From a virus (taxonomy: Duplodnaviria > Heunggongvirae > Uroviricota > Caudoviricetes), in the IMG/VR virus record IMGVR_UViG_2850802633_000004: a stretch of DNA of 41,734 bases. One strand, given 5' to 3'. The notes under the pieces were generated by a model, which was not told the DNA's origin, did no database searches, and was given only the letters and a program-made list of their open reading frames with translations. The position numbers were made by a program, and so were the translations under genes. This document shows, piece by piece, positions 24,770-38,568 of the stretch; the first letter of the stretch is position 1; each line of letters opens with the position of its first letter.

Positions 24770-25718
24770 TGAGGTGTACTGGCAATAGCGGACACTACCA
24801 TTTGTTCTTTTTTTAAGCAGTCATCTGATGATATTTTTCCCTGAAGGCTGCCGGGGAGATATTCCCCAGACGAGAGTGACGACGCTGACGATTGTAGAAA
24901 ATCTCAATGTATTCCCGTATTACTGAGATGGCTTCATCCCGGTTATTAAAACGATAGTGGCTCAGGCTCTCATTTTTCAGCGTTCCCCAGAAGCTTTCCA
25001 TCGGAGCGTTGTCGTAACAGTTACCTTTACGCGACATTGATGTTTTCAGACCAGACTGCTCCTGTATGACCCGGTAATCGTATGCGCAGTACTGTGAACC
25101 TCGATCAGAGTGGTGGATTAGCCCGGCAGGTGGGCGCTGGCTCCTGAGCGCCATAAACAGGGCTTTACCTGTCAGCTCTTTTGTCATGCGCTCTCCCATG
25201 GCGTAGCCGACAATTTCACACGTATAAACATCTTTGATGCCAGCGAGGTACAACCATCCCTCCTGTGTGGCAACATACGTCAGGTCCGCCACCCAGACCT
25301 GATTTGGTGCTGTAGGAGCGAACGTCTGGTTCAGCAGATTTGGCGCAACTGGCAGATTGTGGTTCGGGTTCGTAGTCGCTCTGAACTTGCGTTTCTGCTT
25401 ACAGCGTAGCCTCAGCTCCTTACGAAGACGTGCCAGTCGGTCACGACCAACGATGATGCCATTCTCTGCCAGCTCCGTCTGGAGCCGCCGGGTTCCATAT
25501 GTTTCGCGAGTGCGGATATGTGCCACCTTAATCTCCAGTTTTAGCCGCTCATCACTTTGTTTTCTGTCTGAGGGTTCATGCTGTACCCAGTTGTAATAAC
25601 CGCTCCTGGATACACCAAATACCTGACACATCGCTTCAATGGGAAATTGTTGTCGCCATTGTTCGATTAACGCGTATTTTTCAGCGACTCCTGTGCAAAA
25701 TACGCTGTTGCTTTTTTT
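24770..25718 (-). mobile_element. IS600 copy 3, truncated (orfA end missing) by IS1 copy A
   Basis: IS600 sequence from the orfB-side terminus runs to ...GCTGTTGCTTTTTTT then abuts the IS1 inverted repeat. Confidence 0.85.
24813..25631 (-). CDS. IS600 OrfB transposase
   Basis: 272-aa ORF. Confidence 0.85.
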   Translation of the reverse strand: MCQVFGVSRSGYYNWVQHEPSDRKQSDERLKLEIKVAHIRTRETYGTRRLQTELAENGIIVGRDRLARLRKELRLRCKQKRKFRATTNPNHNLPVAPNLLNQTFAPTAPNQVWVADLTYVATQEGWLYLAGIKDVYTCEIVGYAMGERMTKELTGKALFMALRSQRPPAGLIHHSDRGSQYCAYDYRVIQEQSGLKTSMSRKGNCYDNAPMESFWGTLKNESLSHYRFNNRDEAISVIREYIEIFYNRQRRHSRLGNISPAAFREKYHQMTA

Positions 25719-25733
25719 GGTAATGACTCCAAC

Positions 25734-26237
25734 TTACTGATAGTGTTTTATGTTCAGATAATGCCCGATGACCTTGTCATGCAGCTCCACCGATTTTGAG
25801 AACGACAGTGACTTCCGTCCCAGCCTTGCCAGATGTTGTCTCAGATTCAGATTATGTCGCTCAATGCGCTGAGTGTAACGCTTGCTGATAACGTGCAGCT
25901 TTCCCTTCAGGCGTGATTCATACAGCGGCCAGCCATCCGTCATCCATACCACGACCTCAAAGGCCGACAGCAGGCTCAGAAGACGCTCCAGTGTGGCCAG
26001 AGTGCGTTCCCCGAAGACGTGCGCCACAACCGTCCTCCGTATCCTGTCATACGCGTAAAACAGCCAGCGCTGACGTGATTTAGCACCGACGTAGCCCCAA
26101 TGTTCGTCCATTTCAGCGCAGACAATCACATCACTGCCCGGTTGTATGCGCGAGGTTACCGACTGCGGCCTGAGTTTTTTAAGTGACGTAAAACCGTGTT
26201 GAGGCCAACGCCCATAATGCGTGCGCTGGCGCGACAT
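25734..26237 (-). CDS. insB: IS1 InsB (expressed as InsAB' by frameshift)
   Basis: 167-aa ORF. Confidence 0.85.
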
Positions 26238-26431
26238 CCGACGCCATTCATGGCCATATCAATGATTTTCTGGTGCGTACCGGGCTGAGAGGCGGTGTAA
26301 GTGAACTGTAGTTGCCATGTTTTACGGCAATGAGAGCAGAGATAGCGCTGATGTCCGGCAGTGCTTTTGCCGTTACGCACCACGCCTTCAGTAGCGGAGC
26401 AGGAAGGACATCTGATGGAAATGGAAGCCAC
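26156..26431 (-). CDS. insA: IS1 InsA
   Basis: 91-aa [25 protein letters not shown]... Confidence 0.9.
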
Positions 26432-26486
26432 GCAAGCACCTTAAAATCACCATCATACACTAAATCAGTAAGTTGGCAGCATTACC

Positions 26487-26660
26487 CGCGTTAAGTTCTT
26501 CGAGCATCTTACGAATATCACGAAGGACATTTCGGTGCTCCTTGCCTGTCAGCTCAGCAATTTCAACTGAGGTCATGGACACAAGCTGGTCGAGGTTAAT
26601 GATGCTGATTTCTTGTTGTGGTTGTTGTGGTTGTTGTGGTTGTTGTGGTTGTTGAGACAT
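26487..26660 (-). pseudogene. Rha/antirepressor-like phage regulatory protein, N-terminal 58 codons only (truncated by IS1)
   Basis: MSQQPQQPQQPQQPQQEISIINLDQLVSMTSVEIAELTGKEHRNVLRDIRKMLEEL; RBS AAGGAAA upstream. Confidence 0.6.
26614..26652. repeat. 9-bp tandem repeat (CAACAACCA, about 4.5 units) encoding (QQP)n
   Basis: Read directly: TTGTTGTGG repeated on plus strand. Confidence 0.8.
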
Positions 26661-26811
26661 CGCTTGATTTCCTTTTTGTTTGCACCCTGAAGTCGCACCC
26701 CCACTGACCTACTCAAAGTCCCCAAGCGAAGGGAGACCAGCAGGACAACAGGATGCAAACAGAATGACTTTGAGATTGAATACTATGATGATGACGATGT
26801 AGCTGTGCGGA

Positions 26812-27052
26812 GCTACTGGGAGGGTCTCTCTAGGAGCCACTCTAGGGTCTCTCTAGGGTCTCTCTAGGCATCAGGCTATACGAAACTACAGGGCATCCTA
26901 AAGAATGACGTACAGGGCCATAGAGGACCATAGAGGACCATAGAGGGCCATAGAGTTAGCTTCTGGGGGTAATGCCTAGAGGAGACCCTAGAGAGACCTA
27001 TAGAGAGACCATAGAGAAGACCTATAGAGAGACCCTAGAGAAGACCTATAGG
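26812..27052. repeat. Array of short direct repeats (CTAGAGAGACC / CCATAGAGG types) in non-coding DNA
   Basis: Read directly; 3x TAGGGTCTCTC, 4x CCATAGAGG, several CCTAGAGAGACC variants; no ORF over 60 aa. Confidence 0.8.
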
Positions 27053-27094
27053 TTTGGTGATTGATTATTATAAATATCATCACCCCTTAAGGTA

Positions 27095-27240
27095 TTCCCT
27101 TAGAGTTAATCTTTAATTGGTCTTTAATTAAATCTTTTATTTAATACTTAAAGTTAATCTCTAATTGTGTCTTTAAGTTAACTTTAAGTAATACTATAAG
27201 TTAATCTTTAATTGTGTCTTTAAGTTAACTTTAAGTTAAG
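27095..27240. repeat. AT-rich repeat array (CTTTAAGTTAA type) with a 37-bp unit duplicated
   Basis: GTTAATCTNTAATTGTGTCTTTAAGTTAACTTTAAGT occurs twice (about 27152 and 27200). Confidence 0.8.
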
Positions 27241-27433
27241 CCCCTGTAGGGACTAGAGACCATAATTAAGATGATTGTGTCTTATTGCTATTCACTTATC
27301 GACTGACCCAGAGCACACAGGAAGCATTCACTTTAAGTAGAACGCTTGGTGTCTGTAATTGGTCATCCCGCCCCTGAAAGGATGCGATAAGTTACGGTTA
27401 GTTGTCCTAGAAGAGAAAACTTTTTGTGTCCCT

Positions 27434-27456
27434 TCTCCCTATAGTGAGTCGTATTA
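27434..27456 (-). promoter_or_regulatory. T7-class phage RNA polymerase promoter, 23/23 match to TAATACGACTCACTATAGGGAGA
   Basis: Minus-strand sequence is the exact T7 consensus promoter; predicted transcription runs toward lower coordinates into the repeat arrays and Rha-like gene. Confidence 0.8.
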
Positions 27457-27543
27457 ATTATCCTTGACAAGTAGAGAAAACTATGAGTCAAAAACATGAC
27501 CACACAGGTCTGTAGTAAGTGTCATCCTAGACTATGGTCTCCT

Positions 27544-29148
27544 CTAGGTCTCCTTATAAACATCAGCCATCACATTGACCAGCCTATCAACCTCGACCTC
27601 TTTAGCATAACGGTCGTACGTAATAGACCCTGAACTATGCCCCATGATCGCCTGTGCATACGCCAACTCGACCCCATGTTGTTTTAACTGGGTCGCAACT
27701 GTATGTCTAAACGAGTGAAACGCTAAGCCGCTACGGTCTACGAGGACTTTAGGCAACAACGTCCGATTAAACCATTTACTCACCTGCTCACCGTAACCGT
27801 TCTTCATGAGACGCAGACCATCGAACACCATAGCGTCATCACCGTCAGCGCCTCTACGGGTCTCTACAAGCGCCATAAAGTCAGCCAATATAAAACCATA
27901 GGCCCCATCGACCAGAGGCACACAGCGGTCACTATGAGCGTTCTTGATGCTCTTACCGGGTAGACTACTATCGTCTTCATTGATATGAATATAAACGGTT
28001 CCCGCCTCAGTGGTCCTGACGTCTTTGACCTGTAGTTGGGCTATTTCATTGAGTCTCGCCCCAGTGATAGCAGCCAAGGCGGTAACATAATAATGATACG
28101 GCTTACCAGAGGTCTTCTGAGAGTATGCCTTAGCTGCGACCAGTAGTTGCCCCACCTGCTCCGTAGAGAAGGCGTTACGGGCCCCTGAGGCTTTACGCTG
28201 AGGGACTTTAAGCTCCAGACCCTCAGTCATGTTCTTTTTAATCAAGTCATTGCGCACAGCCCACCTAAAGACAGCAGCCATCTTAATAAGATACTTGTTG
28301 TTGATGGTAACGACATCCAGACAATCTGTCTTATCTTCACGGCTCAACAGGTCAGCAAGTGGGACATCCTTGAAGCGCTGCTTACGGTTCCTAGGTAACT
28401 GCTGGAGCACATCACGGACCCTAAGCATGTCAGCCCTGTTAGCGTCTGCATTGAGACCCAGATGGTCGAATATTTCGATTAACGCAGCGTGTGACGCCTT
28501 GTTTTCCCTTAAGGTTGCAGGCTTCCAGTTCTGATAGTTCTCCGCTTCGTATTGCTCAAAGAGGCTCGCTATGGTAATGCTAGGCGTAACTTCTGGTTTT
28601 ACTTCTGGAGCATTAACAGATAGGGACACAGAGTCTGCTTGGTTATCTTGCCTATCAATATCATTAAAAAGATCGACGTAATCTATCAGAGGCTGACTGT
28701 CTCCCGCTTCGATACGCCTCATACAGGCTTTTAGCACCTTCAGGGCCTCATTGATGTAACGATGCTGGTCAATGCTTAGCGGCTCACTAGCCAGAGCATC
28801 GGTAAGGCTCTCACCAAGTTCTCCGTATTGGTCCCGGTAGATATCCCTCATGTCAGGCTCAAAGAGATCTGAACGGCCCATAGACAGTTCACACTCAGCG
28901 ATGTCCTTAAGGTGTTCCCTCATTTCCTCGTAGGTAGCGTTGGGTCTGTCTGCGTGTATTGCCTTGAGTGCTGCCTTTATGTGCCTTGAGTAAGCCATAG
29001 CGGTGCGTCTATCCTTGGTCCGTAATGATATTGAGGTCATTCTATCATTGTTTGATTGTCTGACCCTAAGACGGAAGTAGTAGACGCCGTTACGCTGGTA
29101 GAGATAGTAGACTGCTGGAAGTTTGTGACTACTGGATAGCTGAATCAT
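27544..29148 (-). CDS. Large tyrosine recombinase/integrase (534 aa)
   Basis: Catalytic motifs ITGARLNE (Arg), HSFRHTVAT (His-x-x-Arg), HSSGSITYDRYAK (Tyr); start 115 bp downstream of tRNA-Gly 3' end. Confidence 0.85.
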   Translation of the reverse strand: MIQLSSSHKLPAVYYLYQRNGVYYFRLRVRQSNNDRMTSISLRTKDRRTAMAYSRHIKAALKAIHADRPNATYEEMREHLKDIAECELSMGRSDLFEPDMRDIYRDQYGELGESLTDALASEPLSIDQHRYINEALKVLKACMRRIEAGDSQPLIDYVDLFNDIDRQDNQADSVSLSVNAPEVKPEVTPSITIASLFEQYEAENYQNWKPATLRENKASHAALIEIFDHLGLNADANRADMLRVRDVLQQLPRNRKQRFKDVPLADLLSREDKTDCLDVVTINNKYLIKMAAVFRWAVRNDLIKKNMTEGLELKVPQRKASGARNAFSTEQVGQLLVAAKAYSQKTSGKPYHYYVTALAAITGARLNEIAQLQVKDVRTTEAGTVYIHINEDDSSLPGKSIKNAHSDRCVPLVDGAYGFILADFMALVETRRGADGDDAMVFDGLRLMKNGYGEQVSKWFNRTLLPKVLVDRSGLAFHSFRHTVATQLKQHGVELAYAQAIMGHSSGSITYDRYAKEVEVDRLVNVMADVYKET

Positions 29149-29262
29149 ATGTCTGTATGCCCTGAGAGGGTTACACAGTGGGTTACAGTAAGTAACTCTG
29201 CAAGGAGGCTTAAAGCCGTATCCCTTAGGATTCAGTAGGTTGGAGTACTTTAAGAAAGGTCA

Positions 29263-29337
<75 letters not shown>

Positions 29338-30334: not shown

Positions 30335-31153
30335 TTAAGCAGCCATCTGATGATATTTTTCCCTGAAGGCTGCCGGGGAGATATTCCCCAGACGAGAGTG
30401 ACGACGCTGACGATTGTAGAAAATCTCAATGTATTCCCGTATTACTGAGATGGCTTCATCCCGGTTATTAAAACGATAGTGGCTCAGGCTCTCATTTTTC
30501 AGCGTTCCCCAGAAGCTTTCCATCGGAGCGTTGTCGTAACAGTTACCTTTACGCGACATTGATGTTTTCAGACCAGACTGCTCCTGTATGACCCGGTAAT
30601 CGTATGCGCAGTACTGTGAACCTCGATCAGAGTGGTGGATTAGCCCGGCAGGTGGGCGCTGGCTCCTGAGCGCCATAAACAGGGCTTTACCTGTCAGCTC
30701 TTTTGTCATGCGCTCTCCCATGGCGTAGCCGACAATTTCACACGTATAAACATCTTTGATGCCAGCGAGGTACAACCATCCCTCCTGTGTGGCAACATAC
30801 GTCAGGTCCGCCACCCAGACCTGATTTGGTGCTGTAGGAGCGAACGTCTGGTTCAGCAGATTTGGCGCAACTGGCAGATTGTGGTTCGGGTTCGTAGTCG
30901 CTCTGAACTTGCGTTTCTGCTTACAGCGTAGCCTCAGCTCCTTACGAAGACGTGCCAGTCGGTCACGACCAACGATGATGCCATTCTCTGCCAGCTCCGT
31001 CTGGAGCCGCCGGGTTCCATATGTTTCGCGAGTGCGGATATGTGCCACCTTAATCTCCAGTTTTAGCCGCTCATCACTTTGTTTTCTGTCTGAGGGTTCA
31101 TGCTGTACCCAGTTGTAATAACCGCTCCTGGATACACCAAATACCTGACACAT
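30335..31153 (-). CDS. IS600 OrfB transposase
   Basis: 272-aa ORF. Confidence 0.9.
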   Translation of the reverse strand: MCQVFGVSRSGYYNWVQHEPSDRKQSDERLKLEIKVAHIRTRETYGTRRLQTELAENGIIVGRDRLARLRKELRLRCKQKRKFRATTNPNHNLPVAPNLLNQTFAPTAPNQVWVADLTYVATQEGWLYLAGIKDVYTCEIVGYAMGERMTKELTGKALFMALRSQRPPAGLIHHSDRGSQYCAYDYRVIQEQSGLKTSMSRKGNCYDNAPMESFWGTLKNESLSHYRFNNRDEAISVIREYIEIFYNRQRRHSRLGNISPAAFREKYHQMAA

Positions 31154-31188
31154 CGCTTCAATGGGAAATTGTTGTCGCCATTGTTCGA

Positions 31189-31491
31189 TTAACGCGTATT
31201 TTTCAGCGACTCCTGTGCAAAATACGCTGTTGCTTTTTTTAATATATCTCGCTCAAGGCGAGCTTCATTTAACGCCTTACGCAGTTGCAGAATTTCAGAT
31301 TCCAGTTCAGCCACCGTGCGGGAACCAGGAGTACCGAGCCCTTTTCTGGCGGCGGTAACCCATTGTCCTAAAGTGCCTTCAGGAAGGGATAATCGGGAAG
31401 CGCCTTCACTGATCGAAAGTTGATTTTCAAGAACCGTTCTGACAGCTTCGGCTTTGAACTCTTTAGAGTAACGTTGGGTTTTTCTGCTCAT
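31189..31491 (-). CDS. IS600 OrfA
   Basis: 100-aa ORF. Confidence 0.9.
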   Translation of the reverse strand: MSRKTQRYSKEFKAEAVRTVLENQLSISEGASRLSLPEGTLGQWVTAARKGLGTPGSRTVAELESEILQLRKALNEARLERDILKKATAYFAQESLKNTR

Positions 31492-37411: not shown

Positions 37412-38230
37412 TTAAGCAGTCATCTGATGATATTTTTCCCTGAAGGCTGCCGGGGAGATATTCCCCAGACGAGAGTGACGACGCTGACGATTGTAGAAAA
37501 TCTCAATGTATTCCCGTATTACTGAGATGGCTTCATCCCGGTTATTAAAACGATAGTGGCTCAGGCTCTCATTTTTCAGCGTTCCCCAGAAGCTTTCCAT
37601 CGGAGCGTTGTCGTAACAGTTACCTTTACGCGACATTGATGTTTTCAGACCAGACTGCTCCTGTATGACCCGGTAATCGTATGCGCAGTACTGTGAACCT
37701 CGATCAGAGTGGTGGATTAGCCCGGCAGGTGGGCGCTGGCTCCTGAGCGCCATAAACAGGGCTTTACCTGTCAGCTCTTTTGTCATGCGCTCTCCCATGG
37801 CGTAGCCGACAATTTCACACGTATAAACATCTTTGATGCCAGCGAGGTACAACCATCCCTCCTGTGTGGCAACATACGTCAGGTCCGCCACCCAGACCTG
37901 ATTTGGTGCTGTAGGAGCGAACGTCTGGTTCAGCAGATTTGGCGCAACTGGCAGATTGTGGTTCGGGTTCGTAGTCGCTCTGAACTTGCGTTTCTGCTTA
38001 CAGCGTAGCCTCAGCTCCTTACGAAGACGTGCCAGTCGGTCACGACCAACGATGATGCCATTCTCTGCCAGCTCCGTCTGGAGCCGCCGGGTTCCATATG
38101 TTTCGCGAGTGCGGATATGTGCCACCTTAATCTCCAGTTTTAGCCGCTCATCACTTTGTTTTCTGTCTGAGGGTTCATGCTGTACCCAGTTGTAATAACC
38201 GCTCCTGGATACACCAAATACCTGACACAT
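37412..38230 (-). CDS. IS600 OrfB transposase
   Basis: 272-aa ORF. Confidence 0.9.
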   Translation of the reverse strand: MCQVFGVSRSGYYNWVQHEPSDRKQSDERLKLEIKVAHIRTRETYGTRRLQTELAENGIIVGRDRLARLRKELRLRCKQKRKFRATTNPNHNLPVAPNLLNQTFAPTAPNQVWVADLTYVATQEGWLYLAGIKDVYTCEIVGYAMGERMTKELTGKALFMALRSQRPPAGLIHHSDRGSQYCAYDYRVIQEQSGLKTSMSRKGNCYDNAPMESFWGTLKNESLSHYRFNNRDEAISVIREYIEIFYNRQRRHSRLGNISPAAFREKYHQMTA

Positions 38231-38265
38231 CGCTTCAATGGGAAATTGTTGTCGCCATTGTTCGA

Positions 38266-38568
38266 TTAACGCGTATTTTTCAGCGACTCCTGTGCAAAAT
38301 ACGCTGTTGCTTTTTTTAATATATCTCGCTCAAGGCGAGCTTCATTTAACGCCTTACGCAGTTGCAGAATTTCAGATTCCAGTTCAGCCACCGTGCGGGA
38401 ACCAGGAGTACCGAGCCCTTTTCTGGCGGCGGTAACCCATTGTCCTAAAGTGCCTTCAGGAAGGGATAATCGGGAAGCGCCTTCACTGATCGAAAGTTGA
38501 TTTTCAAGAACCGTTCTGACAGCTTCGGCTTTGAACTCTTTAGAGTAACGTTGGGTTTTTCTGCTCAT
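38266..38568 (-). CDS. IS600 OrfA
   Basis: 100-aa ORF. Confidence 0.9.
   Translation of the reverse strand: MSRKTQRYSKEFKAEAVRTVLENQLSISEGASRLSLPEGTLGQWVTAARKGLGTPGSRTVAELESEILQLRKALNEARLERDILKKATAYFAQESLKNTR

Follow-up and report, generated by a model that had tools for sequence, protein, structure and literature searches.

The segment between positions 26,487 and 29,262 of the IMG/VR record IMGVR_UViG_2850802633_000004, a stretch of 41,734 nt to which we refer as the window, carries on its minus strand a tyrosine integrase, a promoter for the RNA polymerase of phage T7, an AT-rich region with arrays of direct repeats, and the beginning of a gene for a Rha-family DNA-binding protein. Judged from its sequence, it is probably the left half of a small 'T7-like-promoter island' that was inserted into a tRNA-Gly(UCC) gene of a lambdoid prophage and split by insertion sequence (IS) elements, and the kind of island to which it belongs would work as a satellite of T7-group phages, most likely exploiting as well as resisting the T7-like phages that infect its hosts. 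A satellite that uses a T7-type RNA polymerase was one of two origins proposed in the initial annotation of this DNA, and it is the best reading of the invariant promoter, the genus-matched promoters of the relatives, the origin-like DNA and a cargo protein with a capsid fold.

Central to this reading is the promoter. On the minus strand, positions 27434-27456 (TAATACGACTCACTATAGGGAGA) agree with the class III consensus of T7 at 23 of 23 positions, so that the perfect match claimed in the initial annotation holds without a single mismatch. The sequence is identical to six class III promoters of T7 (phi6.5, 9, 10, 13, 17 and OR) and, together with its flank, to the context of phi13 over 27 of 27 positions. 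Scored with a matrix built from 17 T7 promoters, it attains the maximum of 39.2 bits, while the rest of the window stays below 12 bits; it is also the sole match in the window at three or fewer mismatches, with 0 expected in shuffled sequences. Transcription is predicted to start at 27439 and to head towards lower coordinates. In relatives that are about 86% identical overall, with diverged flanks and unrelated upstream DNA, the promoter is unchanged, and every E. coli copy examined keeps one or two perfect T7 promoters. The window copy has a single promoter, not a tandem, and relatives have between one and four. Downstream of it, a block of 43 nt (27361-27403, minus strand; AACTAACCGTAACTTATCGCATCCTTTCAGGGGCGGGATGACC) is kept in Shigella, in E. 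coli and in the Enterobacteriaceae isolate of locus L012, and is slightly diverged in the Klebsiella locus L004; neither the block nor the transcribed leader matched an Rfam family or showed an unusual RNA fold (z -1.7).

The type of promoter changes with the host of the island. Phage-type promoters follow the integrase in 14 of 16 loci from other genera. While the islands of E. coli and Shigella have the T7 type, that of Klebsiella pneumoniae ATCC 13883 (L004 7035-7611) combines an exact consensus of phage K11 (AATTAGGGCACACTATAGGGAGA) with a one-mismatch K11 copy and an exact T7 23-mer. The type found in Citrobacter and Buttiauxella matches Kayfunavirus phages (EcoDS1, Dev2 and SFPH2), with six sites per phage genome, and the type of Proteus and Kluyvera agrees at 26 of 26 positions with promoters annotated in ICP3, a T7-like phage of Vibrio, where as many as 15 places in a genome match. 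That exact class III-type promoters for several polymerases have been exchanged on one conserved backbone makes little sense unless the island is meant to be read by the polymerase of an infecting phage. The same stretch of L004 also holds a fourth variant, AATTAGGTAGCACTATAGGGAGA, to which no cognate phage is assigned.

Upstream of the promoter and in the same orientation lies the gene of an apparently intact tyrosine integrase of 534 residues (27544-29148, minus strand; Pfam Phage_integrase, E 4e-18, with a further weak match to DUF6538), the promoter beginning 87 bp past its stop codon. Its start codon is separated by 114 nt from the 3' end of a tRNA-Gly(UCC) gene (29263-29337, minus strand; ARAGORN), which bears out the tRNA-adjacent tyrosine recombinase described in the initial annotation. 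A cluster of 769 S. flexneri proteins is 100% identical to the integrase, and relatives with 83-98% identity occur in Escherichia, Klebsiella, Citrobacter, Raoultella, Serratia, Yersinia, Cedecea and Lonsdalea. The tRNA gene is the integration target, and its last 21 nt (CGATTCCCGCTGCCCGCTCCA; 29263-29283, minus strand) form the att core. It is not a chromosomal gene; it is the final member of a cluster of four tRNA genes (Met, Arg, Thr and Gly) on a prophage. Since temperate E. coli phages have tRNA clusters with 93% identity to this one, the island sits in a prophage-borne tRNA-Gly gene, between the Q and lysis genes of the decayed lambdoid prophage known as the sit island. The island DNA between att core and integrase start, the int-proximal arm of attL (29149-29262, minus strand), is nearly identical to the matching junction of islands at glyU in E. 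coli, despite the different tRNA.

These E. coli islands are common. A module 86-95% identical to the segment is present in 388 of 5426 complete E. coli genomes (about 7%), inserted at glyU, the gene of tRNA-Gly(CCC), beside actS and the ETT2 island, and further islands are found in many genomes of Klebsiella, Citrobacter, Serratia, Yersinia and Pectobacterium. In a window full of IS copies and rearranged prophage DNA, one might suspect a less meaningful origin: a promoter that is a vector contaminant or a chance match, or an integrase that is the lambdoid prophage's own and was moved by an IS-mediated rearrangement. Each of these has next to no credence. The same module of integrase, promoter and repeats recurs at tRNA-Gly, flanked by att sites, in the 388 E. 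coli chromosomes and in many other genera; no vector matched the segment, and plasmids yielded one integrase-only hit; chance predicts no such promoter, as the shuffled sequences show; and the junction of tRNA and integrase is collinear with that of the E. coli islands. We therefore consider contamination, chance match and displaced prophage integrase refuted.

The segment ends abruptly at an IS1 element of 768 bp (25719-26486), which has terminal inverted repeats at 25719 and 26486 and InsA- and InsB-like open reading frames, and which truncates the island without being part of it. The adjoining gene, which encodes a DNA-binding protein of the Rha family, is reduced to its initial 58 codons (26487-26660, minus strand; Pfam Phage_pRha, E 7e-10) and runs into the IS1 end at 26486, just as had been annotated initially. 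Its orthologue in E. coli (L001) has 234 residues and does not share the N-terminal (QQP)n stretch, which in the window arises from a 9-bp tandem repeat (TTGTTGTGG, 4.7 copies at 26613-26654; TRF). As a side observation, transcripts from the T7 promoter would enter IS1 on the sense strand of insA and insB, and T7 infection could thus drive the expression of IS1 transposase.

The missing part of the island survives elsewhere. In the chromosome of S. flexneri GCA_900457185.1 (L033 7340-10115), an IS end is followed by rha from about codon 124, a 64-residue gene, a gene for a DUF6971 protein, a gene of 379 residues, attR, and the holin, lysozyme and Rz genes of a lambdoid prophage. Here, attR is the 21-mer CGATTCCCGCTGCCCGCTCCA (L033 10095-10115), identical to the 3' end of the tRNA gene in the window, and is thus the second copy of the att core that a tRNA-integrated element should have left behind; the window itself holds the tRNA-side copy and no second att site. 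As distal half and 21-nt attR survive in GCA_900457185.1, the original element was an island of about 6 kb that integrated into the prophage tRNA gene before IS elements split it. What the window preserves is a remnant of 2.8 kb with one truncated gene; it retains integrase, promoter, origin-like region and arrays, but cargo genes and second att site are gone, which means that it is dead and can no longer excise or move.

From the promoter to position 26660, where the Rha gene starts, there are, as noted initially, no convincing genes, the open reading frames of 40-61 residues being spurious. Instead, this stretch contains an AT-rich region with 18-25% G+C and repeats of the ACTTAAAG type (27085-27244, minus strand; composition and TRF), within which TRF delimits an array of 47 bp in 2.8 copies (27104-27236). 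We propose from its sequence that it may be a T7-type replication origin, primed by transcription from the promoter. In a sensitive blastn search against phages, only the promoter and the AT-rich motif matched, the latter resembling intergenic DNA just after the RNA polymerase gene of the T7-like phages IME15, PZL-Ah1 and Ebrios, which is the position of the primary origin in T7, and positions 5825-5860 of K11, directly after its promoter phi1.05. Every T7 origin has a promoter of the phage RNA polymerase as an essential part (PMC8373140). The edge of the region is marked by an inverted repeat (GGTGATGATATTTATAATAATCAATCACC; 27056-27084, minus strand, read from the sequence), which is kept in relatives from E. 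coli and Klebsiella; judged by eye, an inverted repeat of similar form, GGTGAT..ATCACC, lies in T7 about 100 bp past phiOR on its downstream side.

Further downstream follow three arrays of direct repeats of 10-24 bp (26822-27052, minus strand; CTCTAGGGTCTCT, CTCTATGGNCC and related units), for which TRF gives units of 11 bp in 4.3 copies (26821-26868), 10 bp in 4.2 copies (26914-26955) and 24 bp in 3.1 copies (26977-27051). They differ in copy number and unit among close relatives and might serve in packaging, in priming or in the binding of proteins. For the primase motif of T7, (G/T)(G/T)GTC, there are 11 occurrences in sense and 13 in antisense against 2.7 expected, a count inflated by the repeats themselves. 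The T7-type terminus CTCACAG is found in three relatives and is absent from the window. Beyond the arrays, one E. coli relative (L031 8840-8890) has three tandem AATCAATACGA units that end in a degenerate T7-like promoter, CAATACGACTTACTAATAGGAGA.

The intact relatives show what an island of this kind comprises. Direct repeats of 17-21 nt, derived from the tRNA 3' end, bound elements of 4195-7342 bp: the shortest is that of E. coli 2018-05-2CC, the longest, which includes an IS5, that of E. coli 21AR0133, and those of Klebsiella, Enterobacter, Buttiauxella, Citrobacter and Proteus have 5452-6447 bp. They carry two to five genes downstream of the promoters and share a gene order in which the integrase is followed by an optional gene of about 210 residues (RAZR/PD-T7-4), one to four promoters, the AT-rich origin-like region with the arrays, and a DNA-binding protein of the Rha, KilA-N or Ant type. 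A capsid-bearing form adds a protein of 64-76 residues, a DUF6971 protein (SF216) and an HK97-fold protein of 326-402 residues before the second att site; in the 4.2-kb form of E. coli there is only a KilA-N protein and, in place of the three genes of the capsid form, a single protein of 157 residues. Beyond Rha, KilA-N, Ant-like, DUF4145 and DUF6971, Pfam and PHROG scans of the cargo proteins recognized nothing, and in the window and the complete relatives these scans found no genes for RNA polymerase, DNA polymerase, portal, terminase or tail.

This gene content bears directly on the second origin proposed in the initial annotation, the remnant of a temperate T7-like phage that once had its own RNA polymerase and structural genes. 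T7 is the textbook example of a strictly lytic phage. T7-group phages with integrases do exist, LUZ100 being an example (PMC10134795), and both the promoter and the origin-like DNA are of the T7 type. Against such an ancestry, complete relatives bounded by att sites span just 4.2-7.3 kb; a tblastn search with 52 T7 proteins gave two hits at noise level in the window and none in seven complete elements, that is, no homologue of any T7 protein; the protein with the capsid fold has no sequence relation to gp10 of T7; and megablast of the segment against 50,697 phage records returned no match. Lacking an RNA polymerase, a T7-type replisome and T7-type structural genes, the islands leave a former T7-like prophage very unlikely, and we reject it. 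The single-subunit RNA polymerase gene for which one would look in such a phage is missing from the window and all seven complete relatives, in which replication genes were likewise not found.

The last gene of the intact islands (L001 15474-16595; 4768-5976 of the L004 element; L033 8513-9652) encodes the protein of 326-402 residues, which remained without a match in Pfam, PHROGs and the sequences of the Protein Data Bank (PDB) and yielded an empty hhalign comparison with T7 gp10. Its AlphaFold model (pLDDT 71.7, pTM 0.68) retrieved 132 PDB and 171 BFVD structures at E<=1e-3, and the top hits were all HK97-fold capsid proteins or encapsulins, capsids of T7-like phages among them. On the strength of this model, the protein is capsid-like with an HK97 fold. 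Its family is very small: 1.84 billion proteins contain 59 cluster representatives of it. Four IMG/VR contigs (L027-L030) carry G+C-rich relatives of 34-36% identity at the edges of predicted prophages; one of these genes follows a KilA-N-like and a possible DUF6971-like gene, and such neighbours suggest that the kind of island extends beyond Enterobacterales. For the DUF6971 protein, a fold search recovered only its own Shigella orthologue, PDB 5EUR, the crystal structure of the 'hypothetical protein SF216' from S. flexneri 5a M90T. That it serves as a scaffold is a guess, which its position and long charged helices would suit.

A second protein of note is encoded between integrase and promoters in many relatives, where the gene overlaps the 3' end and stop codon of the integrase gene. 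It is PD-T7-4 (E 8e-99), with the R-x7-H catalytic motif conserved in L004 (6397-7029) and L022 (1842-2483); DUF4145 genes occupy the same position in L020, L021 and L023, and L007 and L009 are also listed as carriers. The window copy has no such gene (Zn-ribbon and DUF4145/HEPN with R-x7-H). PD-T7-4 has since been renamed RAZR and is an abortive-infection HEPN RNase for which the portal rings of T7 or T3 act as the trigger (PMC13017515), and the original screen states that it often overlaps an integrase gene (PMC9519451). A term search of the two papers yielded nothing on satellites and, in the former, two occurrences of 'T7 promoter'.

From these components, we infer a life cycle of induction, replication, excision, packaging and transfer. 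The island would stay silent until a T7-like phage infects the cell, upon which the phage RNA polymerase would fire the island promoter and raise the cargo to the strength of a late gene; strong and late expression would be expected because the promoter is of the class III type. Transcription would prime replication by the phage replisome at the AT-rich region, the integrase would excise the amplified island, and packaging would combine portal, terminase and tail parts of the helper with the island's own capsid protein, followed by re-integration at the tRNA-Gly of a new host. The helper phage would be harmed by RAZR and by the competition for parts. In its most specific form, which we advance tentatively as quite possible, the islands would be capsid-encoding satellites of virulent T7-group phages, wired to the RNA polymerase of the helper by interchangeable promoter cassettes and with RAZR in their arsenal against it.

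Several observations weigh against a satellite. Most E. coli copies have the 4.2-kb form without the capsid gene, and the capsid module of the L001 type (21AR0133) occurs in just 2 of the 5426 E. coli genomes. The capsid model is of moderate confidence only, with low TM-scores to its hits (0.25-0.45), and none of the IMG/VR relatives of its gene lies on an island-sized viral contig. The AT-rich region is located about 190 bp from the promoter, not directly after it as in T7. The likeness of the repeats to T7 genome ends, to which the initial annotation had pointed, holds only in style; in sequence, neither arrays nor segment show similarity to the terminal repeats of T7 or K11. The ATCTGTT pause signal was not found, so that no packaging site could be identified, and no excisionase was recognized. 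No episomal or circular form was seen: five short stand-alone contigs that carry the integrase have no terminal overlaps and all start in the chromosomal tRNA/actS context, and the metagenome contigs of 4.1-4.4 kb that stand alone are integrated copies broken at repeats. Finally, experiments on induction, replication or transfer of such islands were not found in the searchable literature.

The main rival to the satellite is a pure defence island. The phage promoters would then be sensors of infection that drive an abortive or poisonous cargo alongside RAZR, such as a decoy shell protein that assembles wrongly with parts of T7, and the islands would spread by other routes than particles. In favour of this, RAZR, which the relatives carry, has a proven abortive-infection activity against T7 and T3, encapsulins are among the matches of the capsid-fold protein, neither packaging site nor episomal form was found, and the capsid-less form is the common one in E. 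coli. However, RAZR lies upstream of the phage promoters and is therefore not driven by the phage RNA polymerase, a sensor has no need for an origin-like AT-rich region or a capsid gene, and integrases with 83-98% identity across genera imply efficient horizontal transfer, yet the islands contain no conjugation genes. On balance, we regard defence without particles as rather unlikely, if worth keeping in mind. The two functions can both be true; as known satellites also defend their hosts, a role in defence and life as a satellite are not exclusive.

As to the wider setting, the host of the window is Shigella flexneri, and ipaH, sitABCD, a lambdoid Q antiterminator, an antirepressor and many IS copies are all located within the window. 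The ipaH-type gene, for an E3 ligase effector with LRR and NEL domains, is at 2942-4657 within the decayed prophage, which also holds the sitABCD metal transporter at 18417-21865; sitA appears to be split into two open reading frames, 18417-19037 and 18986-19330. An IS3-family element is present in five copies (533-1689, 11424-12580, 24813-25631, 30335-31491 and 37412-38568), each with an open reading frame of 272 residues and usually another of 100, and there are at least two IS1 copies, at 16826-17315 and 25719-26486.

As a decayed remnant, the Shigella copy has little importance in itself; its family is well worth experiment. Small islands that only the RNA polymerase of T7-group phages can read are present in about 7% of complete E. 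coli genomes. If these islands are mobilized, they would offer a simple and testable system in which a virulent phage is parasitized, account for the setting in which the RAZR defence gene naturally occurs, and be relevant when Klebsiella or E. coli is treated with T7-like phages.

How do these islands compare with known systems? The kind as such has been known since 2006, when it was reportedly described by Chen and Schneider (Nucleic Acids Res 34:1133, PMC1380254). Their survey of nine enteropathogens is said to have comprised 12 islands with sizes of 4-13 kb. Each reportedly had a tyrosine integrase, two or three tandem promoters, followed by two to five phage-related genes, and terminal repeats of 17-24 bp, with neither an RNA polymerase gene nor recognizable structural proteins, and they reportedly suggested that the islands depend on T7-like phages. 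A 2020 review cites that paper in connection with the sit island of S. flexneri, and the locus of the window was therefore probably among the islands of 2006. Shared with these are an integrase upstream of a T7-type promoter, the lack of an RNA polymerase gene, enterobacterial hosts and, in the intact relatives, a few phage-related genes, end repeats and a size of a few kilobases. The differences are that the window copy is a truncated one with only one promoter, that it retains one repeat of the 21-nt pair of the ancestral Shigella element, and that relatives encode an HK97-fold protein and RAZR. Among the papers that we found to cite the 2006 work in the searchable literature, none has satellites as a topic, and we found no demonstrated satellite of T7 there. 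Three further points, equally not found there, may be new: that the islands encode a capsid-fold protein, that they are linked to RAZR, and that their promoters match phages of four groups.

At the level of DNA, the closest counterparts are the origins of T7 (phi1.1A/B as primary and phiOR/phiOL as secondary origins) and engineered plasmids with a T7 origin (PMC8373140), which likewise couple a promoter for the phage RNA polymerase to AT-rich DNA, the primary origins of the T7 group sharing with the island the AT-rich motif of the ACTTAAAG type. The AT-rich region of the island differs from those of T7 by its distance of about 190 bp from the promoter and by being roughly three times longer. 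The resistance component has its counterpart in the RAZR/PD-T7-4 system, whose gene overlaps the integrase 3' end in relatives and which the window copy lacks.

Among satellites, with which the seven complete relatives share the absence of virion genes of their own for portal, terminase and tail, two groups are most similar. The phage-inducible chromosomal minimalist islands (PICMI) of Vibrionaceae are, according to the abstract of their description (PMC10803314), also very small integrative islands with a minimal gene set and virulent helper phages. No homology to them was found; unlike the islands studied here, which have phage RNA polymerase promoters and in many cases their own capsid-fold gene, PICMI are without capsid-remodelling genes, and the abstract does not report promoters for the helper RNA polymerase. 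The hallmarks of phage-inducible chromosomal islands (PICI) and their capsid-forming variant (cf-PICI), namely a primase or replicase with its own origin, a small terminase or packaging module and, for cf-PICI, portal and connector genes, were not found in the cargo by Pfam and PHROG scans. The cf-PICI are, according to the abstract of their report, satellites that encode their own capsid protein, and indeed everything needed for building and filling small capsids, so that only tails come from the helper (bioRxiv 10.1101/2022.09.08.507074). The islands described here resemble them in having a capsid-fold protein of their own, possibly with DUF6971 as its one partner, whereas portal, terminase, tail and replication would all be provided by the helper.

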